64,000 nt of DNA from Acidobacteriota bacterium (GCA_003223555.1 QHVM01000085.1:92211-156210); one strand, 5' to 3'. Shown: positions 1,556 through 20,051, counted from the first letter of the stretch. Numbers and translations: made by a program. The notes: generated by a model from the letters alone, not told the origin.

Positions 1556-2055
1556 GGCCGGTGGCCCGCCGCGCGCCGCGCCGGTCGAACGTCGGAGAAG
1601 GAGCGGCGCCCGCCCCGCGCTCCGTCAAGGCCAGCCTCCGGCTGTCGATCCCGAGCCAGACGTCGTTCCTGGGCGTGGTGCGGGAGATCACGAAGAAGAT
1701 GGCGGAGTCGGCCGGCTTCTCGGCCGGCACCGCGGACCGGCTGGCCCTGGCGGTGGACGAGGCCGTCACCAACGTCATCGAGCACGCCTACCACGGCGCC
1801 GCGGACCGGGAGGTCGAGCTGCGCATCGAGGACCGGGGAGACGAGTTCCGGGTGGAGGTCGTCGACAGCGGGGCGTCGGTGGACCCCCGCGCCGTGCCGC
1901 GGGTGGACCTGCCGCGCTACGTCAGCGAGCGCCGCACCGGCGGCCTGGGCGTCCACCTGATGGAGAAGATCATGGACTCGGTGACGTTCCGGCGCTCGGC
2001 CCGGCGCAACGTCTGCTGCCTCGTCAAGCGCAAGGACTCGCCACCGGCCCGGTGA
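1549..2055 (+). CDS. anti-sigma regulatory factor, Ser-protein kinase (RsbW/SpoIIAB-like HATPase_c)
   Basis: Motifs AVDEAVTNVIEHAY and GGLGVHLM of the GHKL ATPase family. Overlaps the STAS gene stop. Exact start uncertain (GTG 1549 or 1561). Confidence 0.75.
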   Translation: MLRPVARRAPRRSNVGEGAAPAPRSVKASLRLSIPSQTSFLGVVREITKKMAESAGFSAGTADRLALAVDEAVTNVIEHAYHGAADREVELRIEDRGDEFRVEVVDSGASVDPRAVPRVDLPRYVSERRTGGLGVHLMEKIMDSVTFRRSARRNVCCLVKRKDSPPAR

Positions 2056-3824
2056 CCGTGAATACCCCCGTCGTCTACCAGTACCAGCGGGCCCTCGACG
2101 CCTTCCGACGCGAGGGAGGATCCTCGCCGCTGCTCAAGCGGATGTCGGAGCTCATCTCGCTGCTGGACCTCACCACCACGCTCAACTCCAGCCTTTCGGG
2201 GGCCGAGATCCTCGACGCCGCGCTCCTGATCGTGATGGGGGAGCTGCAAGCCACGCGCGGCGTTCTCCTCGTGCGGGCCGAGAGCGGGAGCTTCCGCGTC
2301 CAGGCCTCGCGGGGGCTGCCTCCGGGGGCGCCCGCTCAGGTGGAGCTGGGTCCGCTGGCGAGTCCGGAGGTGATCTTCCGCCGCCGGGGCGCGCACGAGG
2401 GGGTGTTCGAGGCCTGCGGCCTGGAGGTGCTCTGTCCCATCTTCAAGGCCGACCGGCCGATCGCCGTCCTGGGGCTGGGGCCACGCGCCGACGGCCGGCC
2501 CTTCGACGTGGAGGAGTCCTCCTTCCTGCAGAGCGTCGCCGCCTGCGCCGCCACTCCCATCGAGAACGGCCTCATCTACCACGAGCTGAAACGCGTGAAC
2601 CAGCGGCTGTCGGTCAAGGTCTTCCAGCTCCACAACCTCTTCGACCTCAGCCGCGAGCTGACCTCGAGCTTCGACGAAGAGGCGATCGAGACCCTCGTCG
2701 CCACGACGCTCATGGGCCACCTCATGGTCTCGCGCTGCGCCCTCTACCGGGCCGCCGAGGGCGGCCTGGTCGTCGCCCATGCGCGCGGCCTGCGCGGCGA
2801 CGAACTGGACCGCTCCATCCCGGCCGCCGAAGCCCGCGTGCTGCTCGGAGCGCTCCGCTCGCCTCTCCGGGTGGCCGAGCTGCCGCCGGGCGCTGCCCGC
2901 GAGCGGCTGGCCGCGGCGCGCATGGCCCTCCTGGTCCCGCTGGCGGCGGGGGAGTCGGTGCAGGGCTTCCTGGCCCTGGGCGAGCGCGTGTCGGGCCTGC
3001 CCTTCAGCGAAGAGGACCTCGAGTTCGCACTGACGCTGGCCCGCCAGGCGCTGGCCGCCCTCGAGAGCGTGCGGCTGCACCGGGTGCGCCTGGAGCAGCA
3101 ACGGCGCGACCGCGAGATGCAGATCGCGCGCGAGATCCAGCAGAGCCTCTTCCCCCGGTCGCGGCCCCCGGTCGCCGGCTTCGACCTGGCCGCGCTCAGC
3201 GATCCATGCCAGGAGGTGGGGGGCGACCATTACGATTTCATCCCCCTCGACGGCGGCCGGCTGGCCCTGGCGGTGGCGGACGTGTCGGGAAAGGGCGCCC
3301 CGGCGAGCATCCTGATGGCCTCGGTCCACGCCTCGCTGCGGGCCATGGCCGGATCGAGCCCGCCGGCGGCGCTGGTGGGGCGGCTCAACCGCTTCCTCCT
3401 CGCCAGCACCCAGGAGAACAAGTACGTGACGCTCTTCTACGCCGAGCTGGACCCGGCCGCCCGCCGCCTCGTCTACGTGAACGGCGGCCACGTGCCGCCC
3501 TGCCGGATCAGCGCCGATGGAGCGTGCGAGCGGCTGCTCGCCGGCGGGCCGGCCCTGGGCCTGCTCGAGCGCGCAGATTACGAAGCCGGCGTGACGGAGA
3601 TGGGAACGGGAGACGTGATGACGGTGGTGACCGACGGGGTGACCGAAGCCGCCTCTCCCGACGACCGTGAGTTCGGCGAGGAGGGGCTGCTTCGGGTGGT
3701 GCGCGCGAGCCGCCAGGAGGGAGCCGAGGCCATCCTGAACGCCCTCGTGCGGGCCGTGCACGCGTGGACGGGACCGGCCGGGTGCTCGGACGACCTGACC
3801 GCCCTCGTGCTGAAGGCCTCCTGA
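2052..3824 (+). CDS. GAF-domain PP2C-type Ser phosphatase (RsbU/SpoIIE family)
   Basis: N-terminal GAF-like regions and a C-terminal PP2C/SpoIIE core (GGDHYDFIPLDGGRLALAVADVSGKG ... VTDGVTEA). Completes a partner-switching trio with the two genes upstream. Confidence 0.8.
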   Translation: MTVNTPVVYQYQRALDAFRREGGSSPLLKRMSELISLLDLTTTLNSSLSGAEILDAALLIVMGELQATRGVLLVRAESGSFRVQASRGLPPGAPAQVELGPLASPEVIFRRRGAHEGVFEACGLEVLCPIFKADRPIAVLGLGPRADGRPFDVEESSFLQSVAACAATPIENGLIYHELKRVNQRLSVKVFQLHNLFDLSRELTSSFDEEAIETLVATTLMGHLMVSRCALYRAAEGGLVVAHARGLRGDELDRSIPAAEARVLLGALRSPLRVAELPPGAARERLAAARMALLVPLAAGESVQGFLALGERVSGLPFSEEDLEFALTLARQALAALESVRLHRVRLEQQRRDREMQIAREIQQSLFPRSRPPVAGFDLAALSDPCQEVGGDHYDFIPLDGGRLALAVADVSGKGAPASILMASVHASLRAMAGSSPPAALVGRLNRFLLASTQENKYVTLFYAELDPAARRLVYVNGGHVPPCRISADGACERLLAGGPALGLLERADYEAGVTEMGTGDVMTVVTDGVTEAASPDDREFGEEGLLRVVRASRQEGAEAILNALVRAVHAWTGPAGCSDDLTALVLKAS

Positions 3825-6153: not shown

Positions 6154-6221
6154 GCCCGCGCCATGCACGACCCGTCGCCTGCTTGCGTTTCTCCGGGAGC
6201 AAGCGTACTGAAGGAGGACTG

Positions 6222-7826
6222 ATGCGCAGGCTTCGAGTCGCGATCCTGGACCTGCTGGAGAAGGGTCCCTGCCACTCCCTGTGGGCCCGGGTCATGGCGC
6301 CCAACTTTGCGAGCATCATGCCCCAGGTGATCGGCGTCTGGTGCGAGCAGGCCGGTCACGACGTCACCCTCGTCTGCTACACCGGCCGGGAGGACCTGGC
6401 CCGCGAGCTACCGGACGACACGGATCTGGTCTTCATCGCCTCCTACACGCAGACCGCCCACCTCGCCTACGCGCTGGCCAACGTCTACCGGCAGCGCGGG
6501 GCGGTGACGGCCCTGGGCGGGGCGCACGCGCGCTGCTACCCGCACGACGCGGCCCGGTACTTCGACTACGTCCTCGGGTTCACCGACCGGGCGATCGTCG
6601 ACGAGGTGCTGCGGGACTGCGCGCCCCATCGGCCCGCGGGATTGAGCCTTTCCGCCCGGCGGCAGCCCGCCCAGCTCCCGGGAGTCAGGGAAAGATGGAA
6701 GTTCATCGAGCCCACCATCGCCAGGGGGGCCGCCATCAAGATCATCCCCATGATCGGGAGCCTCGGCTGCCCCTACACCTGCAGCTTCTGCATCGACGCC
6801 ACGGTGGACTACCAGCCCCTGGACGCGGGCCAAATCCGCGACGACCTCCGTTTCCTGCTCGGGAAGCTCAAGCGGCCGATGGTGGGCTGGCACGATCCCA
6901 ACTTCGGCGTGCGGTTCGACGAGATCATGACCACCATCGAGGCCGCCGTCCCCGCCGATCGCATCGACTTCCTCGCCGAGAGCAGCCTGTCCCTACTCTC
7001 CGAGCCCCACCTGCGGCGGCTGCAGCGCAACGGGTTCAAGGCGATCCTGCCCGGGATCGAGTCCTGGTACTCGCTGGGCGGCAAGTCGAAGACCGGAAGC
7101 CTCACGGGCCTCGAGAAGGTGCGGCGGGTCTCGGACCACGTGAACACGATCCTGCGCTACGTGCCCTACGTCCAGGCCAACTTCGTGCTCGGCCTCGACG
7201 ACGACGCGGGCGAGGAGCCCTTCGAGCTGACCAAGCTCTTCGTCGACATGACGCCGGGCGCGTTCCCCGCCTATTCGCTGCTGTCCGCCTTCGGCCAGGC
7301 GGCGCCGCTCAACCTCGACCTGCAGCGCGACGGCCGCGTGCTCCCCACCCCCTTCCACTTCCTCGACAACAACCAGGCGACCAACGTCCGGCCCAAGAAC
7401 TACACCTGGCCCGCGCTCTACGACAACGTCATCGCCCTGCGGCGCCATTCGTTCTCCTGGCGCGTCATCGGGCGGCGGATGCGCGCGAACCGCGTCCCCA
7501 CCGCCCGGTGGATGAACGTCGTGCGGGCCGTGTCGGAGGAAGGCTTCGGCCGCATCCGCCACGACTCCATCGTCCGCCGGCTCCTCGACGACGACCGGTG
7601 CGTGCGCCGCTTCTTCGAGGGCGAGAGCGACGTCCTGCCCGCGTTCTACACGGATCGGGTCCGCAAGGACCTCGGGCCCTGGTGGGACGCCCTTCCCGAG
7701 GGCTCGCTGCGCCACGATCCCAACGCGTACCTCAAGGCATGCCAGGCGGCCCGGCCGCCCGGCCTCGAAGTCGCGCCGCCCCCGCCCGCCGCCCGTCCGC
7801 GCCCACCCCGGCCGTCGGCGCCGTGA
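6222..7826 (+). CDS. B12-binding-domain radical SAM protein (class B) with a long C-terminal extension
   Basis: N-terminal cobalamin-binding-like domain (RVAILDLL...), radical SAM CxxxCxxC (GCPYTCSFC), then about 250 aa of extra C-terminal sequence. Perfect RBS AAGGAGG 5 nt upstream of ATG 6222. Confidence 0.8.
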   Translation: MRRLRVAILDLLEKGPCHSLWARVMAPNFASIMPQVIGVWCEQAGHDVTLVCYTGREDLARELPDDTDLVFIASYTQTAHLAYALANVYRQRGAVTALGGAHARCYPHDAARYFDYVLGFTDRAIVDEVLRDCAPHRPAGLSLSARRQPAQLPGVRERWKFIEPTIARGAAIKIIPMIGSLGCPYTCSFCIDATVDYQPLDAGQIRDDLRFLLGKLKRPMVGWHDPNFGVRFDEIMTTIEAAVPADRIDFLAESSLSLLSEPHLRRLQRNGFKAILPGIESWYSLGGKSKTGSLTGLEKVRRVSDHVNTILRYVPYVQANFVLGLDDDAGEEPFELTKLFVDMTPGAFPAYSLLSAFGQAAPLNLDLQRDGRVLPTPFHFLDNNQATNVRPKNYTWPALYDNVIALRRHSFSWRVIGRRMRANRVPTARWMNVVRAVSEEGFGRIRHDSIVRRLLDDDRCVRRFFEGESDVLPAFYTDRVRKDLGPWWDALPEGSLRHDPNAYLKACQAARPPGLEVAPPPPAARPRPPRPSAP

Positions 7827-8610: not shown

Positions 8611-9433
8611 CGGACCCCCCGCTGCCCACACCTCGAGGCAGCGGGCCTCTCCCTTCTCCCGCGGCCGAAATAGCATACCCCCCTATGGGCTGTTCATCGC
8701 CCCGCGCGAGGCGGCCATCAGGTGCGCGGAGCCGGACCACTCTGCCTACACGCCTGAATCCCCTCGGCCGCGTTCATCCACGTCGTGCGGGATCACCGAC
8801 GAATGGCTTGGGGTCGATGACGAGCCACGGCTTCCGCTGCGCCCGAAGCACGTTTAGAGGGCGGAAGGGATGCGCCACGGGTGACCGCCACAGGCGACGC
8901 AGAAGACGTGCGATGACGAGATCCTGCTCTGACTCTGGCCGCGTTCGCAGCGGCGTCCCTGGCTCGCAACGCTCAAGAAGACTGGCGCCGAGGTCGTCGT
9001 CCGCCTCGTAGAGCCGCACCGTCGGGTGTCCGTTCCAGAAACGCAGGCGTCTTGCTGCACGTCATTGCGAGCCTTCGTGGAATGGTCAGCATGCGTTCAT
9101 CGTGACCGGGGCCGTCGCTGGCCGCCAGGAGGGCGCGGCGCCCGGGGATCTCCGACCGCTTCTTTCCTCCCGAAATGCCACTCGAAGCGGCTCTTGAGCA
9201 CGAGCCCCGGCCCTTGCCCTCCGATATCGAACGATGGGACAACACCGCCAAGACGGCGACACCGCAGACCTCGCGCACGCAGATCTCCTCCTGACTGACC
9301 GGGAACGCACCATGAGGTTCTTGTGGGTAACGGTCGAGCTAGAAGGGTGGTGGGGCGTAGCCGGCGCGAGGGCACCCATGGTTGCGGACCGCGTGGATCA
9401 CGCAGCCAATTGGCGGCCGGTGGGCGACCGTCA

Positions 9434-9508
9434 TGGAGCGGGAAACGGGATTCGAACCCGCGACTTCGACCTTGGCAAGGTCGCACTCTACCACTGAGTT
9501 ATTCCCGC
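9434..9508 (-). tRNA. tRNA-Gly (anticodon GCC)
   Basis: Reverse complement reads GCGGGAATAACTCAGTGGTAGAGTGCGACCTTGCCAAGGTCGAAGTCGCGGGTTCGAATCCCGTTTCCCGCTCCA. Cloverleaf with anticodon loop CTTGCCAAG and encoded CCA. Confidence 0.9.
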
Positions 9509-9641
9509 CCTTGCGCATGACCATCTTACGAACGGTGGCCGGACGCGTCAACCCCGTCCCGTCGATACCTGGCCGAGGGAGCGCCTCCCGCCAGAGGATC
9601 TTGATCGACCTTTCGCCTTCTTCTATAGTGGGTTCCTCCGG

Positions 9642-9717
9642 GGCGGCGTAGCCAAGTGGTTAAGGCGGAGGTCTGCAAAACCTCTACTCTCCGGTTCAAG
9701 TCCGGACGCCGCCTCCA
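9642..9717 (+). tRNA. tRNA-Cys (anticodon GCA)
   Basis: GGCGGCGTAGCCAAGTGGTTAAGGCGGAGGTCTGCAAAACCTCTACTCTCCGGTTCAAGTCCGGACGCCGCCTCCA. Acceptor GGCGGCG/CGCCGCC, anticodon loop CTGCAAA, encoded CCA. Confidence 0.9.
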
Positions 9718-9752
9718 GCCCTTCTCATCTTCGTAACACGAGGCGGCCTGCG

Positions 9753-10250
9753 ATGAGCCTGGGTAAGCGCCTGCACGAGCACTATCATCGACAGCTCTCG
9801 CTCCGCCGCCAGATCGCCATCCGCGCGCTGTGCTCCTTCCTCGTGATGTTCTTGATCGCGAGGGCCTACACGTACTCGGTCCACTACCACCTGCTGCCGC
9901 TGCGCGACTTCGTCACCGCGAGTGGCCTGCACATCCACCATCTCTTCTGGGGGATCCTGCTCTTGATCGTGGTTGGCTTCGGGGCGCTGGCCTCGCGCGA
10001 CCCGCGGTGGCACCTCCGCCTGGCGGTGGTCTATGGCGTGGCGCTCGCCCTCACCCTGGACGAGTTCGCGCTATGGCTGCGGCTGGCCGACGTCTACTGG
10101 TCGCCGGAAGGGCGGGAGAGCGTGGAGGCGGTGGCGGTGGCGGCGTCCGGCCTCGCGCTCATGGCCGTCGGCGAGCCGTTCTGGCGGGCGGTCGCCCGTG
10201 AGGTCTGGCCCGCAGCGAGTCCATCGTCGGCGGATGGAGGAACGCCGTGA
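9753..10250 (+). CDS. hypothetical integral membrane protein
   Basis: Four predicted hydrophobic helices and no recognisable motif. Stop overlaps the next gene's start (GTGA). Confidence 0.5.
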   Translation: MSLGKRLHEHYHRQLSLRRQIAIRALCSFLVMFLIARAYTYSVHYHLLPLRDFVTASGLHIHHLFWGILLLIVVGFGALASRDPRWHLRLAVVYGVALALTLDEFALWLRLADVYWSPEGRESVEAVAVAASGLALMAVGEPFWRAVAREVWPAASPSSADGGTP

Positions 10251-11287
10251 AGACGGTCCGGATCGCGATGCTCGGATCGGGCTTCGTGGCGGAGTTCTAC
10301 CTGCAGGGGCTCGCCAATGTGAACGGCTGCGAGGTCCGGGTCAACTACTCCCGTTCCGCGCGCCGCGGCAAGGACTTCGCGGAGCGCTGGCGCATTCCCG
10401 GGACCACGCGCGACCTCGACGAGGTCGTCGCGCGCGGCGACATCGACCTCTTCGTCATCGCGCTGCCGAACGACGCCCACCTCCCGGTGAGCCTGAAGCT
10501 CTCGCGCGCGAAGCGGAACCAGGTCTGCACGAAGCCGCTGGCCCGGAACAGCAAGGAGGCGAGGGCCATGCTGGACGCCGCGCGGAAGTCGGGCGCTCTC
10601 CACGGCTACGCCGAGACCGAGGTCTTCGCCCCCGCGGTGGTGAAGGCGCAGGAGATCGTTCGCTCGGGCGGCATCGGGCGTGTCCTCTGGGTGCGCTCGC
10701 GCGAATCGCATGGCGGGCCGCACAGCGCCCATTTCTGGGACGTGACCCGGACCGGCGGCGGGGCGATGAACGACCTCGCCTGTCACACCATCGCCGCCGC
10801 GCGCTATTTCTTCGGCAAGGACGACCGGATCGTCGAGGCCATGGCCTGGGGCGATCGCCTCGTCCACCACGACAAGACCAGGGGCGAGGACAACGCCCTC
10901 CTCGTCCTCCGGTTCGCCAGCGGGGGGATCGGCCATTGCGAGCTTTCCTGGACCACGAAGGGCGGGCTCGACCTCCGCAACGAGGTCCACGGGAGCGAAG
11001 GCTCGATCTTCACCGACGTCACGCGATCGACGCCCATTGCCGCCTTCACCATGAAGCCCTCCGGCTACGTCGTCGAGAAGGCGGACATCGACTTCGGCTG
11101 GACGAAGCCGCTGCCCGAGGAAGCCTTCACGTACGGCTACCAGGCCGAGATGCGGCATTTCGTCGAATGCGCCCGGGACGGCGCGACGCCGCGCGAGACG
11201 TACGCGGACGGCTACATCGTCAACGTCGTCCTCGACGCCGGATACGAATCGATGAGGACCCGCAAATGGGTGCGCGTGAAGTACTGA
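10247..11287 (+). CDS. Gfo/Idh/MocA-family NAD(P)-dependent oxidoreductase
   Basis: N-terminal Rossmann MKTVRIAMLGSGFVAEFY and a C-terminal Gfo/Idh/MocA alpha/beta domain. Confidence 0.85.
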   Translation: MKTVRIAMLGSGFVAEFYLQGLANVNGCEVRVNYSRSARRGKDFAERWRIPGTTRDLDEVVARGDIDLFVIALPNDAHLPVSLKLSRAKRNQVCTKPLARNSKEARAMLDAARKSGALHGYAETEVFAPAVVKAQEIVRSGGIGRVLWVRSRESHGGPHSAHFWDVTRTGGGAMNDLACHTIAAARYFFGKDDRIVEAMAWGDRLVHHDKTRGEDNALLVLRFASGGIGHCELSWTTKGGLDLRNEVHGSEGSIFTDVTRSTPIAAFTMKPSGYVVEKADIDFGWTKPLPEEAFTYGYQAEMRHFVECARDGATPRETYADGYIVNVVLDAGYESMRTRKWVRVKY

Positions 11288-11370
11288 AAAACGGCGTCGC
11301 GCCACCCGCGAGTAGCCTCTCGACCCGGGGGCATGCTAGGCTTTCGCAACTCTTGCGCAGGAAGTAGTCG

Positions 11371-14007
11371 GTGGGTCTCGCTGCCCCGTGGGTCGGTCCG
11401 TACCGGATCCTGGAGAAGCTCGGAGCCGGGGCGATGGGCGAGGTATACCTGGCCGAGGACCCGCGCCTCCACCGCCGGGTCGCGCTGAAGACGCTCGCCG
11501 ATCCGGTCAACACGGCGCCCGAGGCGCGCCGTCGGCTGCTGCACGAGGCCCGCGCCGCCGCCCGGCTCAACCATCCCAACGTGGCGGCCATCTACGACGT
11601 CGTCGAATCCCCGGACAGCGTGCACCTCGTCATGGAGTACGTCCCGGGCGAGACGCTGGCCGCCCGGCTCCGCGGCGGGCGTTTGGACTCGGCGGCCGTG
11701 GTGGCCATCGGCGTCCAGCTCGCCGACGCGCTGGCCGAGGCGCATGCGATGGGGGTCATCCACCGCGACCTCAAGCCGGGCAACGTCATCGTGACCCCCG
11801 GGGAGCGGGTCAAGGTGCTCGACTTCGGCGTCGCGCGCACGCACGGGGTCCGTCTCGTCGACCCCGATTCGGGCTACAGCTCCAGCTCGCGGGACAAGTC
11901 TTCCGACGTCCGGACGATGGTCGGGACGCCGCCCTACGTCCCGCCCGAATGCTTCCTCGGCCAACCGGCCGACGCCCGAGGCGACATCTACAGCCTCGGG
12001 GTGACGCTCTTCGAGATGCTCACCGGCCGGCGGCCGTTCGCAGGGAAGGACGTGCAGGCCGTGGGTGTCGCCGCCCTCACGGAGGCGACGCCGCGCGCAC
12101 GGGGAGCCAACGACGGCGTGTCGTTCGGCCTCGACGCGATCGTGGCCCGGGCCATGGCGCGCGAGCCGCGGGACCGTTACGGCTCCGCCGCCGAGCTGGC
12201 CGCCGCGCTTCGAGACGAACAGGAGGCGCTGCGTGACGCCTCGACGCTGTCCGGGCCGGGGTGGCGCCTCCCGGACCTGCGTCGCTGGACACGGCCGCGG
12301 TCGGCCTGGGCGCTGATCACGGTCCTGCTGGCCGTCTACTCGTACAGCATCCTGCTCAAGGCTCGGCGCCCTCCGTCGAGCGCCGGCCCGCCCGGCTCCG
12401 CGGTCGTGGCCGTGCTGCCACTGGCCAACGCCACCGGCGATCCCGGCAACGATCACCTCGGCGCCGGCATCGCCGACGTCCTCATCGCCACCCTGGCCCG
12501 GGTCCCGGGCGTCACGATGATCTCGCGCAGCGCGACCCTCCCGTATCGGGAACGAAGGAAGGACGTCGCCTCCATCGCCCGCGAGCTGGGAGCCGACCTG
12601 GTGGTGGACGGGGCCGTGCAGGCCTCGGGGAAGGCGGTGCGGGTCACCCTCAGCCTGCTCCGGCCGCAATCGAACCTCGTCGCCTGGAGCGGCGCTTACG
12701 ACGGCGCGTTCTCCGACCTGTTCACGCTGCAGAACGAGGCGGCGACCGCCCTCAGCCAGGCGCTCCAGGTGACGCTCTCGCCCGAGCAGCGCCGCCGCAT
12801 CGGTCGTCCCCCGACGGCGAACGTCGAGGCGCTGGCGGATTACGTCCAGGCGCGTTCCTTCCTCCAGCGCCCGGACGTCAAGGGCGACAACCTCGAGCAC
12901 AGCATCGGCCTCTTCCAGAGCGCCCTGGCCCGGGACCCGAGATTCGCGGGCGCGCACGCCGGCCTCGGCCAGGCCTATTGGCTGCGGTTCGAGGAGATGC
13001 GGGAGGCGCAGTGGTCGGAGAAGGCCTTCGTCGCCATCACGGAGTCGTTGCGGCTGGACCCCGAGGACGCGGCCGCCCACCAGGCCCTGGCGATCGTCTA
13101 CCAGGGGAAGGGCCGGACCGATCAAGCCGAGGAGGAATTCCGCCGCGCCATCTCCCTCCTGCCCACCAGCGACGAAGCGCACAGCCTGCTCGGCCGGATG
13201 CTCTGCGAGCAGGGACGGCGAGAGGAGGGCATCGCCGAGCTGAAGAAGGCGATCGCGCTGAGGCCGAACTACTGGGGGCACCACTACGAGCTGGCGATCG
13301 CCTACTTCGACAGCGGCCGCTATCCCGAAGCGGCCGCCACCTGCCGGCGCGTCATCGAGCTCCAGCCCGACAGCTCTCGCGGCCTCCTGCTGCTGGGGAC
13401 GGTCTATTACGCCAGCGGCGACAACCGGCGAGCCATCGCCACGCTGCGGCAGGCGAACGCGCTCAGCCCGGACGCGGCCACCTACACCAATCTCGGCGCA
13501 GCGCTCCTGGCCGACCGGCGGTACGCCGAGGCCGCGCAGGCATTCGAGGAGGCGGCCCGGCGGGCGCCCAAGGCGCCGTCCAAGCAGCGGAACCTCGGCG
13601 AGGTGTACGAGCGTCTGGGCCGGGGCGAGGCTGCTCGGCAGGCCTACCGGCGCGCGGTCGAGCTCAGCCAGGAGCAGCTCCGGACCAACCCTCGTGACGC
13701 GCGCACGCTTTCCATGCTGGCCGTCGACGAGGCCAAGCTCGGCCAGTGGCCCGAGGCCCGGCGCCACGCGGACGAGGCCACGGCGCTGAGCCCGCACATG
13801 GCGGATGTCATCTACCGCAAGGCGGTCGTGCTCGCCCTGGCCAGCCGGCCGGACGACAGCCTGGCCGCTTTGGAGCAGGCGATCGCCGAGGGGTTCGGCC
13901 GCGCGCGGGCGGCGGGGGACGAGGACCTCAAGACCCTCCGCGGCCTTCGGGAGTTCCAGAGGCTGATCGGGGACGCGCCGGTCCCCGCGAAAGGAGGCTC
14001 CAAGTGA
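11371..14007 (+). CDS. Ser/Thr protein kinase with a C-terminal TPR-repeat domain
   Basis: Hanks kinase motifs (GAGAMGEVY, HRDLKPGNVIV, DFGVAR, PPYVPPE), a transmembrane segment, then multiple TPR repeats. Confidence 0.9.
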   Translation: MGLAAPWVGPYRILEKLGAGAMGEVYLAEDPRLHRRVALKTLADPVNTAPEARRRLLHEARAAARLNHPNVAAIYDVVESPDSVHLVMEYVPGETLAARLRGGRLDSAAVVAIGVQLADALAEAHAMGVIHRDLKPGNVIVTPGERVKVLDFGVARTHGVRLVDPDSGYSSSSRDKSSDVRTMVGTPPYVPPECFLGQPADARGDIYSLGVTLFEMLTGRRPFAGKDVQAVGVAALTEATPRARGANDGVSFGLDAIVARAMAREPRDRYGSAAELAAALRDEQEALRDASTLSGPGWRLPDLRRWTRPRSAWALITVLLAVYSYSILLKARRPPSSAGPPGSAVVAVLPLANATGDPGNDHLGAGIADVLIATLARVPGVTMISRSATLPYRERRKDVASIARELGADLVVDGAVQASGKAVRVTLSLLRPQSNLVAWSGAYDGAFSDLFTLQNEAATALSQALQVTLSPEQRRRIGRPPTANVEALADYVQARSFLQRPDVKGDNLEHSIGLFQSALARDPRFAGAHAGLGQAYWLRFEEMREAQWSEKAFVAITESLRLDPEDAAAHQALAIVYQGKGRTDQAEEEFRRAISLLPTSDEAHSLLGRMLCEQGRREEGIAELKKAIALRPNYWGHHYELAIAYFDSGRYPEAAATCRRVIELQPDSSRGLLLLGTVYYASGDNRRAIATLRQANALSPDAATYTNLGAALLADRRYAEAAQAFEEAARRAPKAPSKQRNLGEVYERLGRGEAARQAYRRAVELSQEQLRTNPRDARTLSMLAVDEAKLGQWPEARRHADEATALSPHMADVIYRKAVVLALASRPDDSLAALEQAIAEGFGRARAAGDEDLKTLRGLREFQRLIGDAPVPAKGGSK

Positions 14008-14513
14008 AGGGAGCAGCTCGGATCGCGATCACGTCCTGGTTCTCACTGGCCGTCTCGATGGCGCAGCCGGGCGCATCGGAGGTGACCCCCTCGCCTGGTC
14101 CGACCAACCATCCCGTGAAGATTGTCACCAAGGACAAGAACGGGAAATGCAGCGTCGACAGCTGGGGACCGAAGACAAGCCTGAGGGTGTCCGTCTCACG
14201 GAAGGACACCGTGACGTGGCAGTTCCAGAACGACTGCTCGAAGGACATGACCCTGGAGGTCGCGAACTTCCAACCGCACGGACCGTCGGTCAAGCCCGGG
14301 GAGCCCGCGGAGAAGGATCCACTCGACGACAAGTGCGCGCGCAAAGCGGCCGTGAGCCACCGGAAGACCGGCGAATTCAAGTGCGGGTTCAAGCTGACGT
14401 TCAAGGGGCCGAACGCGATCTACCACTACCCCGAGGATGCCCGAACCTACAAGTACGACATCCTGGGTGATGGTCAGCCGCTGCTCGATCCGGAGATCGA
14501 GGTCCGCCCCTGA
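14004..14513 (+). CDS. small secreted protein of unknown function
   Basis: GTG start 7 nt after RBS AAGGAGG, overlapping the kinase stop. Signal peptide KGAARIAITSWFSLAVSMAQP. Lower local GC. No recognised domain. Confidence 0.55.
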   Translation: MKGAARIAITSWFSLAVSMAQPGASEVTPSPGPTNHPVKIVTKDKNGKCSVDSWGPKTSLRVSVSRKDTVTWQFQNDCSKDMTLEVANFQPHGPSVKPGEPAEKDPLDDKCARKAAVSHRKTGEFKCGFKLTFKGPNAIYHYPEDARTYKYDILGDGQPLLDPEIEVRP

Positions 14514-14532
14514 CTCGCCGGCCAGCCCGAAG

Positions 14533-15189
14533 GGGCAGACGGTGAAGGTTCGCTTCGGGGAGTTCCTCTTCGATGACGATACGCGGCAGCTCCTGCGTGG
14601 CGGGGAGGTCGTGGCCCTGTCGCCCAAGAGCTTCGACCTCCTCCGCCACCTGCTGAAGCGACGCCCCGGCGCCGTCTCCAAGGCCGAGCTGCAGGCGCTC
14701 GTCTGGCCCGACACGCACGTGACCGGCGCCAGCCTGGCCAGCGCGGCCAGCGACCTGCGGGCGGCCCTCCAGGACCGGCGGCGCCGGCCCCGTTTCATCC
14801 GCACCGTCCACGGCTTCGGCTACGCCTTCTGCGGCGAGGCCGAGCCGTCGGGGAAGGTGAGCGAGCCGCGGCCGGCCGCAGGACCCGCGTACCGCCTGAT
14901 CTGGAACCGCCGCGAGATCGAGCTGTCCGAGGGCGAGAACGTCCTGGGCCGAGACCACGGCGCCGTGGCCTGGATCGACTCCCCGACCGTCTCCCGCCGG
15001 CATGCGCGCATCGTCGTCTCGGACGAGCAGGCCGTCCTCGAGGACCTGGGCAGCCGCAACGGGACGTGGGTCCGCGGGCGCAGGGTCACCGGCCGGCTAC
15101 GACTGGCCGACCTCGACGAGCTGAAGCTGGGCTCGGTGGTGATGGTCTTCCGGGTCTTCGAGCCGGACGAAACCGACTCCGCTCGCTAG
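14533..15189 (+). CDS. winged-helix (OmpR/CadC-type) DNA-binding domain fused to a C-terminal FHA domain
   Basis: N-terminal trans_reg_C-like region (FLFDDDTRQLLRGGEVVALSPKSFDLLRHL...VW). C-terminal FHA signature (GRDHGA ... SRRHARI ... DLGSRNGTWV). Start set at GTG 14533; the ORF track extends to 14437. Confidence 0.7.
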   Translation, partial: GQTVKVRFGEFLFDDDTRQLLRGGEVVALSPKSFDLLRHLLKRRPGAVSKAELQALVWPDTHVTGASLASAASDLRAALQDRRRRPRFIRTVHGFGYAFCGEAEPSGKVSEPRPAAGPAYRLIWNRREIELSEGENVLGRDHGAVAWIDSPTVSRRHARIVVSDEQAVLEDLGSRNGTWVRGRRVTGRLRLADLDELKLGSVVMVFRVFEPDETDSAR

Positions 15190-16019
15190 TCGGACCCGCG
15201 GGCGATCGGCAACGTGAAGGAGAAGGTCGCCCCGCGGCCCGGCGCGCTCTCGGCCCAGATCCGGCCCCCGTGCGCCTCCACGAGTCCCTTCGCGATCTTG
15301 AGGCCGAGGCCGGCGCCCAGGCGGGCGGTGCGCCTCGCCTGCCAGTAGGGCTCGAACACGTGCTCCAGGTCGCGCTCCGGAATGCCGGGCCCCTGGTCGG
15401 TGACCGCCACGCGGACCTGGCCGCCTTCCCGCCGGCCCGTCAAGGCGATGAGCCCTCCGCGAGGGGTGAACTTGATCGCGTTCCCGATGAGGTTGCCGAG
15501 CACCTGGCCGATCCGGTCCGGATCCGCCCAGACCGCCACGGGCGATTCCGGCAGCTCGCAGCCCACCACCTGCTCCTTGGCGCGGGCCTGGATGTGGAGC
15601 GCCTCGCAGCCCTCGCGCAGGAGCGACGCCAGCTCGACCGCTCGCGGCTCGACTCGGAGCGTGCGGCCGGCGTCGAGACGGCTCAGCTCCTGCAGATCCT
15701 TGATCATGCGCTCCATCCGGCTCGCCGCCCGCTTGATGATCTCCAGCACGTGGATCTTGCTCTCCTCGGGCTGAGCCGCGTCCTCGAGGAGCAGGGTCCC
15801 CATCGAGATGGCGCTGAGCGGCGTCCGCAGGTCATGGGAGACGATGGCAAGCACCTCGCCGCTCCGGCGGGGCGAAAGCCCCAGGACCCGCATCGCCGTA
15901 TGTCGCGCCATGAGCTCCTCCGATCCTCGGCCGGCCCCACGACCCGGCTCGAAGGCATTGACGGCGCCCGTCCAGGAGCGGTTCCCGGAGTCGACAAGCC
16001 TCCAGCAAACGATCAGCAA
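15186..16019 (-). CDS. sensor histidine kinase lacking a recognisable sensor domain
   Basis: HisKA H-box (SHDLRTPL) and HATPase_c N/G-boxes (GNAIKFT, DQGPGIP, GLGLKIA). Only about 50 aa precede the H-box. Start uncertain (15911 or 16019). Confidence 0.8.
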   Translation of the reverse strand: MLIVCWRLVDSGNRSWTGAVNAFEPGRGAGRGSEELMARHTAMRVLGLSPRRSGEVLAIVSHDLRTPLSAISMGTLLLEDAAQPEESKIHVLEIIKRAASRMERMIKDLQELSRLDAGRTLRVEPRAVELASLLREGCEALHIQARAKEQVVGCELPESPVAVWADPDRIGQVLGNLIGNAIKFTPRGGLIALTGRREGGQVRVAVTDQGPGIPERDLEHVFEPYWQARRTARLGAGLGLKIAKGLVEAHGGRIWAESAPGRGATFSFTLPIARGSD

Positions 16020-16105
16020 ACCGCCAGGATCGGGAGGAGAGAGCGGATGTGGGAGGCGCGCAACGGGCGCCCCCCAGCTTCGGGGAACCGGTCCGCGAAC
16101 GAGCG

Positions 16106-17221
16106 TCAGCGGAGGGCGCGCAGGTTCAAGATCTGCGTCAAGAGGCTCGTGAGGATGCTGTAGTTACCGTTGGAATACCGTCCATACTGAGAGCGGCCAT
16201 AGTAACCGTCCTCGTAACCGCGGCGGAAGCCCTCCCGGAAGTAGTAGTTGTACTCGGGCTGGTCGATGTACCGGCCCGTATAGCCGTAATTCGCATCCTG
16301 GTAGGCGTAGGAGCCTTCGGGATCGAAGCGCCAGCCGTCCTGCCGGTCGGCGCGGCCGGCCCGGAAGCCTTCCTCATATCCGTATCGGACCGCCTGCCGG
16401 AGCAGGTCCGCCCCGTACTGGTTCGTCTCGTAGTAGCGCCCGTCATAGGAGTAGCCGTAGCTGGGGGCGGTGTAGAAGTATGGGTCGTTGCTGTAGTCGT
16501 AGGAGCGCGCCAGCGCCAGACGCTGCTGGCGCAGGCGGCCCAGGTACTGCTCCTGGAAGCGGTACTGCGCGAGGCGACGCTGCTGCTCCAGGGCCTGTGC
16601 GCGCTGCTGGGCGAGGTTCAGCTGCTGCTCCAGCCGCTGGTTGTACGCCGCCGCGCGCTGGCGCTGCTGCTCGATGAGCTGCTGCTGGCGCTCCTGCGAG
16701 AGGCGCTGCTGCCGGAGCGGCTGTGCTGATGACACCTGCTGCTGAGCCTGCTGCTCTTGCCGGATCTGTCGCTGCGGCTGCTGTTGTTGGGCCTGTTGCG
16801 CCTGACGGGCCTGACGCTCCTGCTGGCGCTGGTGTTGAGCCTGCGGTTGCTGCTGCGCCTGCTGGGCCTGCCGCTCCTGGCGCTGCGCCTGCTGCCGGCC
16901 CTGCTCTTGCGCCTGTTGCTCCTGCCGGCCCTGCCGCTCCTGCTGGCGCTGCTGTTGAGCCTGCGGTTGCTGCTGTGCCTGCTGGGCCTGGCGCTCCTGC
17001 CGCTGCTGCTGGCGTTGCGCCTGCTGCTGAGCCTGTTGTTGCGCCTGTTGCTCCTGCCGGCCCTGCCGCTCCTGCTGGCGCTGCTGTTGAGCCGGCTGGG
17101 CCCGGCCTTGCTGCGGCTGATCCTGCTTCTTCTCCTTCTTGTCCTGCTCTCCCTGCTTCTGCCCCTCCTGCATCGCACTCACCAGCGCCAAGCTCGCGCG
17201 GTTCCAGCCGGTCATGATCAT
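16106..17221 (-). CDS. secreted Gln/Arg-rich tandem-repeat protein with a Tyr/Gly/Arg-rich C-terminal low-complexity domain
   Basis: Signal peptide MIMTGWNRASLALVSA. About 200 aa of imperfect roughly 40-aa repeats (QQERQGRQEQQAQQQAQQQAQRQQQRQERQAQQAQQQPQAQ...). Non-repetitive Y/G-rich tail (YGYSYDGRYY ... YGRSQYGRYSNGNY). The minus strand was chosen over antisense plus-strand ORFs because of the signal peptide and the complex tail. Confidence 0.55.
   Translation of the reverse strand: MIMTGWNRASLALVSAMQEGQKQGEQDKKEKKQDQPQQGRAQPAQQQRQQERQGRQEQQAQQQAQQQAQRQQQRQERQAQQAQQQPQAQQQRQQERQGRQEQQAQEQGRQQAQRQERQAQQAQQQPQAQHQRQQERQARQAQQAQQQQPQRQIRQEQQAQQQVSSAQPLRQQRLSQERQQQLIEQQRQRAAAYNQRLEQQLNLAQQRAQALEQQRRLAQYRFQEQYLGRLRQQRLALARSYDYSNDPYFYTAPSYGYSYDGRYYETNQYGADLLRQAVRYGYEEGFRAGRADRQDGWRFDPEGSYAYQDANYGYTGRYIDQPEYNYYFREGFRRGYEDGYYGRSQYGRYSNGNYSILTSLLTQILNLRALR
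16780..17110 (-). repeat. in-frame tandem DNA repeats (units of about 120-126 bp) encoding the Q/R-rich repeats
   Basis: Recurrent CTGCTGGCGCTG...GCCTGCTGGGCCTG blocks are visible on the plus strand. They are coding, not a CRISPR array (no spacer structure). Confidence 0.7.
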
Positions 17222-17357
17222 GAAAGCCTCCCGAGTATCACGTCCACGGATGTAACGGAGCAAGAAGCGCGCCAGTCAGGCCGCGCCGTAAACCGCGGGT
17301 TTCGAGGGCTTTGAGTCCCAAGCCGCCTGGGATAGTGTTGCTGCCGGAGGGCAACTC

Positions 17358-18497
17358 ATACCGCAAGAGAGCCCGTCTCGCGACCGCATCCTCGGCGTCG
17401 GGATCAGCGGCATCGGCTGGTGCGCGGCCGAGCACATCAAGGCATTCCTGCGCAACGCTCACGTACGCATCGTGTGGCTGCATGTCCGCGACGAGGCGCG
17501 GGCGCGGGAGAAACTGGCCCGGTACGGGGTGGCCGTGCCCGGCGTCCGTTTCACCCCGCGCTATGAGGACCTCCTGGAGTCGGCCGAGGTGGACATCGTG
17601 TCCATCACGACGCCCAACCACCTCCATGCCGGCCAGGCGGTGGCCGCCGCCCGGGCGGGCAAGCACTTCGTCCTCGAGAAGCCGACCGGCCTCGACACGC
17701 GGGAGCTGGTCCGGATCCGCAACGCGGTGCGCCGGGCGAAGGTCCGCACTATTGTCTCCTTCGAGCTGCACTACAACCCCTACCTCCGTTTCGTCCATTG
17801 GCTGCGCGCGTCGGGCCGCCTGGGCCGCCTCCGGTTCGCCCGGGTCCAGTACCTGTCCCGGGTCACCAACTGGTACTCGGGCTGGGGCTGGGTCCGGACG
17901 CGCAAGAGCGGGGGCAGCCACCTGCTGGCCGCCGGCTGCCACGCCGTCGACGCGCTGCGCTGGTGCTCGGGCCTGGAGGCGGAGGAGGTGAGCGCCTACC
18001 ACACGCGGTTCACGAAGGGCTACGAGTGGCCCACGACCATCGAGGCCAACGTGAAGCTCGGCAAGGGCGCGCTCGGCCACGTGACCAGCTCCACCGACTT
18101 CATGCTGCCCTACACGTTCGGGGTGGAGCTGATGGGCGACCGGGCGACGGTGCGCGACACGCTGATCACCTGGCTGAAGGAACAGCCGCTCGACCTCGAT
18201 GAGCTGAGGCGGGCGAACCCGTTCCCGGACGTCAAGCTCCTCGAGGGCCGCTACGGAAGCGAGAGCCCGGCCGTCCGCATCGAGACGCTCATGCCCGACT
18301 CCGCCGACGTCAGCCATCACCCCTTCCAGGGCGAGATCGACGAGATGGTGGACGCGGTACGCCGGGGCCGGGAGACGCACCTCAGCGTGTTCGACGCGCA
18401 GAAGACCATGGAGCTCTGCCTGGCCGCAGACCTCTCGGCCGAGAAGGGAGGCCGGCCGGTGAGGCTTCCCCTCATACCCGAGCACCGGCGGGACTGA
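17358..18497 (+). CDS. Gfo/Idh/MocA-family oxidoreductase without a canonical start codon
   Basis: The Rossmann motif RILGVGISGIGWCAAEHIKAF is in frame upstream of the ORF-track start (GTG 17472). No in-frame ATG/GTG/TTG lies between the stop at 17289 and the motif. The 5' end is uncertain. Confidence 0.7.
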   Translation: MPQESPSRDRILGVGISGIGWCAAEHIKAFLRNAHVRIVWLHVRDEARAREKLARYGVAVPGVRFTPRYEDLLESAEVDIVSITTPNHLHAGQAVAAARAGKHFVLEKPTGLDTRELVRIRNAVRRAKVRTIVSFELHYNPYLRFVHWLRASGRLGRLRFARVQYLSRVTNWYSGWGWVRTRKSGGSHLLAAGCHAVDALRWCSGLEAEEVSAYHTRFTKGYEWPTTIEANVKLGKGALGHVTSSTDFMLPYTFGVELMGDRATVRDTLITWLKEQPLDLDELRRANPFPDVKLLEGRYGSESPAVRIETLMPDSADVSHHPFQGEIDEMVDAVRRGRETHLSVFDAQKTMELCLAADLSAEKGGRPVRLPLIPEHRRD

Positions 18498-18659
18498 CCG
18501 GCCGCTGGGTCCTGGCGCACAGGTGACGGGCGTCACAGGATAGGCGCGCGGGGGCCCGGCGGTCCGAAGTTCCTGCCCCCGTCGGCTATCCTTTGCTCGA
18601 GCGGCGAGCCTTCCCGCCGATCAGGGGTCGCGTCTTGATCGGAGCGCGCCGCTCGAGGC

Positions 18660-20051
18660 ATGAGCGCGTCACGACTGCGGAACGCGGCCGTCTTCGTAGG
18701 CCTGGCCGGGCTCTACTTCGTGGCCGGCAAGCTCGGCCTGAGGCTGGCGTCCGTGAACGCGAGCGCCACCGCCGTGTGGGCCCCGACGGGCATCGCGCTG
18801 GCCGCCTTCCTGACGCTCGGTTACCGCGTCTGGCCGGCCATCCTCCTGGGCGCTTTCCTGGTGAACGTGACGACGGCCGGCTCGCTGGCCACCTCCGCCA
18901 GCATCGGCGTCGGCAACACCCTGGAAGGGGTCGTCGGGGCGTACCTGGTGAACCGGTTCGCCCGCGGCCGCGACGCCCTGCAGCGCGCGCCCGGCGTCTT
19001 CAGGTTCGCAGTCCTGACGGCGATCGTGAGCACGATGGTGAGCGCCACCTGGGGAGTGACGACCCTCTCGCTGGCCGGGCTCGCCGATTGGGCGAGCTAC
19101 GGGTCCATCTGGTTGACCTGGTGGCTCGGCGACGCCGGCGGGGACCTGGTCGTGGCGCCCTTCGCGATCCTCTGGAGCGCGAGCTCCCGCCTGCGATGGA
19201 GGGGGGCCCGGGCGTTCGAGGCCGCGTTCCTGCTGCTCTCGTTCTGCCTGGTGGGCGCGATCGTGTTCGGCGGGCTCGCGCCCTCGCCGGTCAAGAACGC
19301 CCCGCTGGAGTTCCTGTGCCTCCCGTTGCTCATCTGGGCGGCCTTCCGTTTCGGGCAACGCGAGGTGGCGACCGGGACCGCCATCCTGGCCGGGATCGCC
19401 ACCTGGGGGACGCTGCACGGCCTCGGGCCCTTCGCGCGGAGCGCGCAGAACGAGTCCCTGCTGCTGCTGCAAGCCTTCATGGCGGTGACCTCCGTGACGA
19501 CGCTGGCGCTGGCCGCCGTCGTATCGGAGCGCAAGGACGCCGAGAGGCGGCTGCGGCGCCTCGCGGTGAGCGACTCCCTGACCGGCCTCGGCAACTACCG
19601 CCGCATGATGGCCGCCCTCGCGGCAGAGATCGGGAGGTCGCAGCGCACCGGCCGGCCGTTCGCGGTCCTCTTCTTCGACCTGGACGACCTCAAGGGGATC
19701 AACGACCGTCATGGCCACCTCGCGGGCAACCAGGCGCTGCGCCGGGTGGCGGATGCGCTGCGCGTGTCCTGCCGGTCCATAGACACCGCGGCCCGTTTCG
19801 GGGGCGACGAGTTCGCGCTGGTGCTGCCCGAGACGCGCGAAGCCGCGGCCAGGCTGGTGGCGCGCCGCGTCTCGGACGAGCTGGCGCTGGACCTGGAGCC
19901 GCCGCGCCTGTCCTTGAGCGTGGGCGTCGCCGAGTACCCTCGGGATGGCGGGACGGCCGAAGAGCTGCTGGGAGCCGTCGATCACGCGCTATACCAGGCC
20001 AAGGCCGGCTTGCCGTCTCTCCGCTCCGCCCGGAGACGGTCACGACGCTGA
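18660..20051 (+). CDS. MASE1-domain diguanylate cyclase (GGDEF)
   Basis: N-terminal multi-helix MASE1-like membrane region. C-terminal GGDEF domain (RFGGDEF, LTGLGNYR). Confidence 0.85.
   Translation: MSASRLRNAAVFVGLAGLYFVAGKLGLRLASVNASATAVWAPTGIALAAFLTLGYRVWPAILLGAFLVNVTTAGSLATSASIGVGNTLEGVVGAYLVNRFARGRDALQRAPGVFRFAVLTAIVSTMVSATWGVTTLSLAGLADWASYGSIWLTWWLGDAGGDLVVAPFAILWSASSRLRWRGARAFEAAFLLLSFCLVGAIVFGGLAPSPVKNAPLEFLCLPLLIWAAFRFGQREVATGTAILAGIATWGTLHGLGPFARSAQNESLLLLQAFMAVTSVTTLALAAVVSERKDAERRLRRLAVSDSLTGLGNYRRMMAALAAEIGRSQRTGRPFAVLFFDLDDLKGINDRHGHLAGNQALRRVADALRVSCRSIDTAARFGGDEFALVLPETREAAARLVARRVSDELALDLEPPRLSLSVGVAEYPRDGGTAEELLGAVDHALYQAKAGLPSLRSARRRSRR

Follow-up and report, generated by a model that had tools for sequence, protein, structure and literature searches.

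The stretch of DNA considered here, 64,000 nucleotides from an Acidobacteriota bacterium (we call the whole of it the window; its G+C content is ~70%), carries at positions 11371-15189 three genes on the plus strand, which encode a membrane Ser/Thr kinase, a small secreted protein, and a regulator in which a winged helix-turn-helix (wHTH) DNA-binding domain is joined to an FHA domain, the kind of module that reads phosphothreonine. To our knowledge, few bacterial Ser/Thr kinases control transcription through a dedicated partner protein, and EmbR is the textbook example of such a partner. A first-pass annotation of the window had proposed that the three genes form one cluster and that the kinase and the regulator together suggest a phosphorylation-controlled switch. 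All of the features that it described in the cluster are present in the sequence, with one start codon corrected. What, then, is the switch made of, how faithfully do its parts travel together, and what might it control?

The three genes are packed tightly. The stop codon of the kinase gene and the start codon of the small gene overlap by 4 nucleotides, 28 nucleotides separate the small gene from the regulator gene, and a terminator scan found no terminator-like sites inside the cluster; the short gap and the absence of terminators argue for co-transcription of all three genes in the window. An Rfam scan of positions 9000-20000 returned two tRNAs only.

The first gene (11371-14007, 878 amino acids, third-position G+C content, or GC3, of 0.92) encodes a kinase whose N-terminal domain (residues 11-286, nucleotides 11401-12228) matches Pfam Pkinase (PF00069) with E=3e-45 and scores 155 bits, the cut-off being 31.7. 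Its catalytic motifs are all intact: a glycine loop GAGAMGEV at residues 18-25, the lysine of VALK at 37-40, HRDLKPGN at 131-138, DFG at 151-153, and an APE-like motif, here PPYVPPE, at 187-193. With the Pkinase fold and all of these motifs, the protein belongs to the Hanks-type Ser/Thr protein kinases. Its Kyte-Doolittle hydrophobicity (19-residue averages) peaks at 1.85 over residues 312-329, the single predicted transmembrane segment (AWALITVLLAVYSYSILL, nucleotides 12304-12357), and a second stretch near residues 363-367 barely exceeds 1.5. Because there is one clear hydrophobic segment, we place the kinase domain in the cytoplasm and residues 330-878 outside the membrane. The outer region is predicted to hold an array of TPR repeats (approximately residues 490-866, nucleotides 12838-13968), with matches to Pfam TPR_1/2/8/11/12/16/19 and related families, all exceeding their cut-offs, and a terminal "TPR end-of-group" domain (NCBIfam NF047558, 66.7 bits against a cut-off of 32). 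The earlier description, a membrane Ser/Thr kinase with a long TPR domain, is thus borne out by the Pkinase and TPR matches and by the one hydrophobic segment.

Some smaller points concern this gene. No repeats were found upstream of it. The PADLOC models for the PD-T4-6 defence system match residues 8-290 of the kinase only, that is, the generic kinase domain, and the other three proteins put to PADLOC, the small protein among them, have no match. We think an anti-phage defence role unlikely, since the match covers a generic kinase fold only and since the membrane segment, the TPR region, the FHA regulator next door, and the housekeeping-type synteny argue against it. An open reading frame at 2052-3824 (plus strand), 7.5 kb away in the window, has a PP2C/SpoIIE-like phosphatase domain at ~3108-3800 and might encode the cognate phosphatase; its product shows 34% identity to a 7TMR-DISM-SpoIIE protein encoded directly upstream of the kinase gene in a relative, the locus L168. 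(Relatives' loci are labelled L001 and so on, and members of the protein families P0124, P0126, and P0158.)

The second gene (14004-14513, plus strand, 169 amino acids) begins with a GTG that overlaps the kinase TGA as GTGA, with AGGAGG 6 nucleotides upstream, much as expected of the translational coupling that had been claimed for the pair. Its first 20 residues resemble a signal peptide, and the protein has no match in Pfam, NCBIfam, or PADLOC, in keeping with the first description of a signal-peptide protein without a known domain. The G+C content of the gene (63%) is markedly below the 71-73% of its neighbours, with the coding GC3 signal retained. We take it to be a real gene because its GC3, 0.85 in frame, falls to 0.57 and 0.47 when the other two frames are read, and because the ratio of nonsynonymous to synonymous substitution rates (dN/dS) is 0.27 against its closest homologue. 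A word-indexed protein search recovered just two matches (the identical protein and one 80% homologue), or nine with a profile, and HMMER, run exhaustively over 1.84 billion cluster representatives, recovered 34 relatives, almost all of 125-200 amino acids; by these searches, the protein appears to define a sparse family without a name. Among 32 aligned members, 25 have a signal-peptide-like or lipoprotein-like N-terminus, and the exceptions include truncated proteins and gene-fusion remnants. The family conserves the motifs GDxVxWxFxNxC, GNFR, DPL, RTYKYDI, and LLDPEIEI along with several semi-conserved cysteines. AlphaFold2 models the protein from a nine-sequence alignment as an all-beta sandwich (predicted local distance difference test, pLDDT, 80; predicted template-modelling score, pTM, 0.71); a model from only two sequences had a pLDDT of 30 and was unusable. 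A cupredoxin identity, one candidate for such a fold, is ruled out, as the family alignment holds no conserved set of metal ligands, the type-1 copper ligands included.

What does so obscure a protein do? In all six genomic contexts that could be recovered (the window, L170, L168/L169, the P0158 contig, L117, and L027/L109), the gene directly 5' of the family member encodes a TPR kinase. Four of these (the window, L170, L168/L169, and the P0158 contig) share the 4-nucleotide overlap, and L117 and L027/L109 have a gap of ~20 nucleotides with a Shine-Dalgarno sequence. The placement fits the earlier suggestion of a periplasmic ligand or partner, and we think that the protein probably works with the outer region of the kinase, as a co-sensor, a ligand carrier, or a modulator. 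It could instead have no part in signalling and be, for example, a periplasmic beta-sandwich of a structural, inhibitor-like, or chaperone-like kind whose gene is simply transcribed along with that of the kinase. The missing metal-ligand set is in keeping with such a bystander, and L100 has a kinase ortholog with no small gene at all. The protein has also evolved faster than those encoded around it: when the window is compared with L168, its identity is 46% against 70-75% for the kinase, the regulator, and the histidine kinase, and its dN/dS is 0.42 against 0.22-0.25. Against the bystander stand the six placements out of six and the four start/stop overlaps, in a family that is otherwise extremely sparse, a pattern of the sort shown by obligate stoichiometric partners. 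We therefore regard the bystander as unlikely, and the faster evolution, still under purifying selection, would fit an exported partner without being proof of one.

The third gene carries the main argument. It had been placed at 14533-15189; the end stands, at a TAG stop, and the start does not, for 14533 is a GGG codon. A GTG at 14542, with GAAGGGG 7-13 nucleotides upstream, gives a protein of 215 amino acids that begins (V)KVRFGEF, and we chose it because it fits both the length (212-221 amino acids) and the N-termini (V/M-R-V-R-F-G-E-F) of the homologues. The Pfam search puts both of the proposed domains, an OmpR/CadC-type wHTH fused to an FHA domain, far above their cut-offs: Trans_reg_C (PF00486, nucleotides 14602-14829) scores 53.9 bits against 26.2 (E=1.9e-14), and FHA (PF00498, 14941-15132) scores 58.2 bits against 20.7 (E=1.1e-15). 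Profile comparison with the PDB agrees, matching the first domain to the DNA-binding domains of OmpR, KdpE, CadC, and ToxR (E 5e-14 to 1e-10) and the second best to the FHA domain of EmbR (2FEZ; i-E 5.7e-13 for the FHA stretch). The linker between the two is ~20 variable residues. Pfam finds no BTAD domain at E<=0.01, as had been said of this protein, and no receiver domain (Response_reg), and hydropathy finds no hydrophobic segment; we take the protein to be cytoplasmic. NCBIfam response-regulator models match the DNA-binding part only, far below their cut-offs. Upstream of the start codon, the search for a motif conserved among the orthologs turned up a short region containing a CATAAT box and nothing more.

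This compact protein is one of many. A search of 5.8 billion proteins returned 5149 matches, single-domain ones included; the best 120 of these 5149 all have both domains within 175-355 amino acids (nearly all within 205-239). The nearest named relatives are Vicinamibacteria, and among the more than 100 loci with full-length relatives that we gathered from species-representative genomes and metagenomes, every named one is from the Acidobacteriota (Vicinamibacteria, Vicinamibacterales, or Thermoanaerobaculia). We aligned 217 distinct members, 37-100% identical, and two things hardly vary. The first is the phosphothreonine pocket of the FHA domain (G136-R137, S151-x-x-H154, and N173-G174 in the window protein), in which the first G and the R, S, and H are found in all 217 members and the N and the second G in 216. 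The second is a threonine in the tail behind the FHA domain, T211 in the window (nucleotides 15172-15174), which is kept in 214 of the 217. It lies ~6-7 residues beyond the last FHA strand, within an acidic, polar tail whose flanking positions vary. The residue after it is E, Q, or D in 177 members and the next is S or T in 191, giving a motif E-T-[E/D/Q]-[S/T], of which E-T-E-S is the commonest form and E-T-D-S (15169-15180) the form in the window. To our eyes, the motif resembles the ETTS phospho-switch of GarA and OdhI, and we propose T211 as a phospho-acceptor and a candidate ligand of the FHA domain.

Might the FHA domain have nothing to do with kinases? FHA domains can mediate oligomerisation, and the FHA half of EspM is needed for a supershifted DNA complex (PMC7002343), so that one could picture oligomerisation or partner binding that needs no phosphate, with the tail threonine serving structure. 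Many orthologs, moreover, have no neighbouring kinase gene. The canonical contacts GR, SxxH, and NG speak against this, however, as do a threonine conserved in an otherwise variable acidic tail, like that of GarA ETTS, and the kinase genes enriched next door. Because the pocket and the threonine motif are so strictly kept, we rate a kinase-independent FHA domain as quite improbable.

The enrichment is a property of the family. Kinase domains occur at 0.188 per kb within 500 bp of regulator-family genes against 0.035 per kb at 6.5-10 kb, a 5.4-fold difference (binomial p=1.4e-4). At 12 or more loci, a kinase gene lies 42-241 nucleotides downstream of the regulator relative on the same strand, and the more distant paralogs (42-54% identity) often have a kinase gene directly beside them; many of these kinases have the same extracytoplasmic region in common. 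Where at least 3.5 kb could be seen on both sides, 17 of 26 loci have a kinase domain within 3.5 kb. From this enrichment at the paralogs, the link between wHTH-FHA proteins and Hanks-type kinases is well supported at the level of the family. Several loci (L009, L027, L029, and L158/L165) have two wHTH-FHA copies within 10 kb, and at L009, each of two paralogs is directly followed by a kinase gene of its own, which suggests tandem duplication of regulator-kinase pairs.

The invariant pocket, the tail threonine, and the enriched kinases all fit the first annotator's idea that an FHA domain plus a DNA-binding domain beside a Ser/Thr kinase make a phosphorylation switch. We hold it somewhat more probable than the contrary that the kinase drives a phospho-switch through the FHA domain and the tail threonine that ends in this transcription factor, and we would stake less on each detail.

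Several facts weigh against tying that switch to this kinase. Kinase genes are dense in these genomes to begin with (~1 per 29 kb even at 6.5-10 kb), so some of the adjacency must be chance. Upstream of the regulator gene, most orthologs at 67-74% identity carry a gene for a pseudouridine synthase, and they have no kinase gene within up to 10 kb. Of 10 regulator orthologs with at least ~2.9 kb of upstream sequence, only two have both the kinase and the small gene alongside, and in a third a different kinase gene lies 4.9 kb upstream. At L002, whose regulator is 77% identical to ours, an in-frame deletion equivalent to window positions 11754-14287 has removed the greater part of the kinase gene and one half of the small gene and left the regulator intact; the adjacent kinase is therefore dispensable there.

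These facts feed a rival explanation, that the juxtaposition in the window is lineage-specific, that the functional unit is the regulator with a convergent histidine kinase (which lies 3-240 nucleotides downstream in nearly all orthologs, at 20 or more loci) served by kinases encoded elsewhere, and that the adjacent kinase and small gene are an independent module. The pseudouridine synthase as the usual upstream gene, the two orthologs in ten, and the L002 deletion are what such a rival would predict. Set against it are the strong enrichment of adjacent kinases at paralogous regulators, the co-transcription argued above from the 28-nucleotide gap, and the way the kinase ortholog stays linked to the regulator despite rearrangement. 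At L100 (regulator 63% identical), it lies on the other strand behind the histidine kinase gene, without the small gene, and at L117 and L027/L109 (51-52%), the kinase gene and then the small gene run divergently from a regulator gene. We consider the lineage-specific reading a serious option, though less likely than not.

In other words, the claim of "one cluster" stands in part. A look for the same three-gene order in other genomes finds it intact in one relative and rearranged, decayed, or absent in others. The intact case is L168, the sole relative with sizeable flanks to have the trio: kinase gene, 4-nucleotide overlap, small gene, 24-nucleotide gap, regulator gene, and then the same downstream genes as in the window, with identities of 70% for the kinase, 46% for the small protein, and 73% for the regulator. 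L170, a contig of 952 nucleotides, gives a partial view of the kinase C-terminus and the small gene. As the trio is intact in L168 and decayed in L002 and P0126, it would thus seem ancestral to a sub-lineage and lost in places, and it is no fixed unit, for most close orthologs lack it; on gene order, the trio is a recurrent but dispensable arrangement.

Two observations belong beside these. L002 2-499 (which is P0124) and P0126 are two different chimeric open reading frames, each with the N-terminal part of the kinase and the C-terminal part of the small protein, and both could have arisen either by decay of the genes in nature or by misassembly of short contigs. In L005-L007 (a 57%-identity ortholog), the regulator gene is preceded by a different kinase-TPR protein of 1111 amino acids, and also upstream are a 702-residue B12-binding radical SAM enzyme and a 79-residue Lys/Arg/Gly-rich open reading frame. 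A radical SAM gene was considered as a conserved partner and dropped: the L005-L007 gene and the one at window positions 6183-7826 are only 26% identical over the core and are not orthologous.

The regulator's most constant neighbour is a gene that the first-pass annotation did not mention. It runs convergently on the minus strand (15186-15911) and encodes a minimal, soluble histidine kinase of ~241 amino acids with HisKA and HATPase_c domains (Pfam) and no hydrophobic segment by hydropathy. Its stop codon overlaps that of the regulator gene in CTAG (15186-15189). The reading frame is open to 16019, and the likely start, by alignment and Shine-Dalgarno sequence, is the ATG at 15911 behind GGAGGA. 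Orthologs of the regulator at 55-100% identity supply the 20 or more loci at which this convergent arrangement recurs. Two details of the histidine kinases may be recorded. All orthologs keep a Thr or Ser a few residues ahead of the HisKA helix (xTAMR or xxSM), and in L168, six copies of a 9-nucleotide tandem repeat (9897-9968, minus strand coding) add a (T-V-Q-T-A)n insertion to the N-terminus, whose Thr/Gln-rich composition recalls the S/E-T-E/Q-T/S motif of the regulator tail.

Upstream of the histidine kinase gene lies what we consider the best candidate for a target site. All 18 ortholog loci examined, the window and 17 others (L001, L003, L005, L088, L091, L092, L095, L096, L098-L100, L102-L104, L106, L122, and L168), carry GGAACG-N16-18-CGT(C/T) on the histidine kinase strand, a motif that we take to resemble promoters of extracytoplasmic-function (ECF) sigma factors; in the window, it is GGAAC, 17 nucleotides, CGTCAA (15958-15985, minus strand). 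Further upstream, all 18 have two or three direct repeats spaced 10-11 nucleotides apart. In the window, these are three tandem 11-nucleotide units, CAGCAAAC-GAT, CAGCAAAC-CGC, and CAGGATCG (16003-16032), which start at 16003, 16014, and 16025; distant orthologs have other repeats, such as CAAGAAATCC twice. The 22-nucleotide core of the repeats is found a single time in the window, where chance would supply none, and a single time at each ortholog locus; the only other match in 3.46 Mb is a poor one. In the repeat region, the window and L168 differ at ~5 of 34 positions, against 45-58% synonymous differences in the genes on either side. OmpR/PhoB-type winged helices bind tandem repeats one helical turn apart, and because of this, we regard the element as a candidate operator at which the regulator would act. 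Another factor, for example the response regulator of the histidine kinase, could just as well use it, or it could be part of the promoter itself, and that counts against reading it as the regulator's own site. L091, L099, and L122 have an insertion of 22-23 nucleotides (approximately two helical turns) between the second and third units.

How might the pieces work together? The extracytoplasmic TPR region, probably with the exported small protein, would sense a signal, and the activated kinase would autophosphorylate. The FHA domain of the regulator could then dock on a phosphothreonine of the kinase, as EmbR does on PknH, and the kinase could phosphorylate T211 in the tail. An FHA domain would read the phosphorylated tail, and if it did so in trans, a dimer would form, taking the role that receiver-domain dimerisation has in OmpR and PhoB. 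Such a dimer might bind tandem direct repeats, with a change in DNA binding as the result, and the best candidate site is the set of three 11-nucleotide repeats; since that site lies upstream of the histidine kinase gene, the output may be expression of the histidine kinase.

The trans step deserves a word. FHA termini lie opposite the peptide-binding loops, and because T211 is so few residues past the last strand, binding of the tail in trans is more likely than in cis. A GarA-like autoinhibition in cis is the less likely alternative, although the choice is drawn from linker length and general knowledge of the FHA fold, which tempers it. As for the input side, the module of kinase and small protein would appear, from its comings and goings among the orthologs, to be an exchangeable input; the many regulator orthologs that lack it must be served by kinases encoded elsewhere.

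One may go further, and we do so in a speculative spirit. The wHTH-FHA-Thr-tail proteins might be the "response regulators" of a Ser/Thr counterpart of two-component systems, expanded by paralogy in the Acidobacteriota, each with its own TPR kinase and some with a periplasmic co-sensor; phosphorylation of the tail threonine would give an FHA-tail domain-swapped dimer on 11-nucleotide repeats, and the output at this locus would be a soluble histidine kinase, making a cascade from Ser/Thr to His. As a whole, this picture is doubtful, and we would sooner expect some link in it to break.

The nearest known relation in design is EmbR with PknH of Mycobacterium tuberculosis, where the FHA domain mediates phosphorylation of EmbR by PknH, which raises DNA binding (PMC6213207). 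Like our regulator, EmbR has a winged helix and a C-terminal FHA domain in one protein beside a Hanks-type kinase, and its FHA domain is the best PDB match to ours. Unlike our regulator, it comes from a different phylum and is a SARP-type protein of wHTH, BTAD, and FHA domains. With no BTAD (215 amino acids leave no room for one), a ~20-residue linker, and a wHTH that matches OmpR, KdpE, CadC, and ToxR at E ~1e-13 but that of EmbR at 0.009, the regulator does not belong to the EmbR/SARP family. The logic is EmbR-like, and the conserved threonine tail after the FHA domain is a feature of the present family.

The tail has its closest parallel in GarA and OdhI of the Actinobacteria, which work with PknG and GlnH/GlnX and also combine an FHA domain with a conserved E-T-T-S-like threonine motif. 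GarA carries its ETTS motif on an unstructured extension beside the FHA domain and is switched off when the motif is phosphorylated (PMC5448819). PknG is reported to contain a TPR domain and to act together with a secreted solute-binding protein (PMC5448819, PMC8546545), and the TPR kinase and secreted small protein here are formally alike. The differences are plain: GarA is a small FHA protein that lacks a DNA-binding domain and acts on enzymes, those of the TCA cycle and of glutamate metabolism; it bears its motif at the N-terminus, on a linker long enough for binding in cis, whereas ours is C-terminal and close to the last strand; PknG is cytoplasmic, whereas our kinase has its TPR region outside the membrane; and the small protein is unrelated to GlnH. 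The NCBIfam OdhI model has a cut-off of 200 bits and scores 35, with a match confined to the FHA part, and so the regulator is no GarA/OdhI protein and the likeness would be one of mechanism.

EspM of Mycobacterium marinum and M. tuberculosis is likewise a stand-alone transcription factor with an FHA and a DNA-binding domain, and its FHA domain is proposed to control oligomerisation on DNA (PMC7002343). The NCBIfam EspM model matches our FHA domain weakly, far below the family cut-off (21 bits against 550), and in EspM, the order is reversed, with an N-terminal FHA domain; the DNA-binding domain is of another type, and no kinase partner is described.

The DNA-binding domain itself is of the family (Trans_reg_C) found in OmpR/PhoB and CadC/ToxR regulators, and the candidate target, tandem direct repeats at 11-nucleotide spacing, is like those of PhoB and OmpR. 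Because it has no receiver domain, the regulator is not a two-component response regulator; it lacks the phospho-Asp, its wHTH is N-terminal rather than C-terminal, and its input would be the FHA domain and threonine tail. It also has no membrane anchor. In Myxococcus, FHA proteins (the FHA histidine kinase EspA and FHA-NtrC-type activators) link Ser/Thr kinases to two-component and transcription machinery. The NCBIfam EspA model matches our FHA domain weakly, and the present FHA regulator, too, has a histidine kinase gene as its constant companion; the architectures are different.

The kind of system, then, is a known one: an FHA-bearing transcription factor under a Hanks-type kinase. What appear to be undescribed in the literature searched are the compact wHTH-FHA-Thr-tail architecture and its expansion in the Acidobacteriota, the kinase-coupled family of secreted proteins, and the link to a histidine kinase with its repeat element. 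(We found no paper on a wHTH-FHA protein without BTAD in that literature; one may exist outside its scope.) Vicinamibacteria and Thermoanaerobaculia are dominant and poorly understood soil bacteria with very large kinase repertoires, and this compact, abundant family has the charm that the whole switch can be read from the sequence: a DNA-binding domain, a phosphothreonine reader, and an acceptor threonine. If the model is right, it offers a tractable system for the wiring of kinases to genes in the Acidobacteriota, a concrete phosphorylation site and a candidate operator, and a new family of periplasmic proteins that may determine which signals a class of TPR sensor kinases detects. Should it be wrong, a correct annotation of three genes remains.

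A last observation concerns the far side of the repeat block. In close relatives, the conserved block equivalent to 15958-16032 ends at a TG-n-TAGTTT box just before the start codon of a divergent GFO_IDH_MocA gene, and block and gene are adjacent in L001, L003, and L168. In the window, an open reading frame of 385 amino acids (16106-17263, minus strand, GC3 0.84), Gln/Arg/Glu-rich, repetitive, and with no Pfam match, sits between the two.

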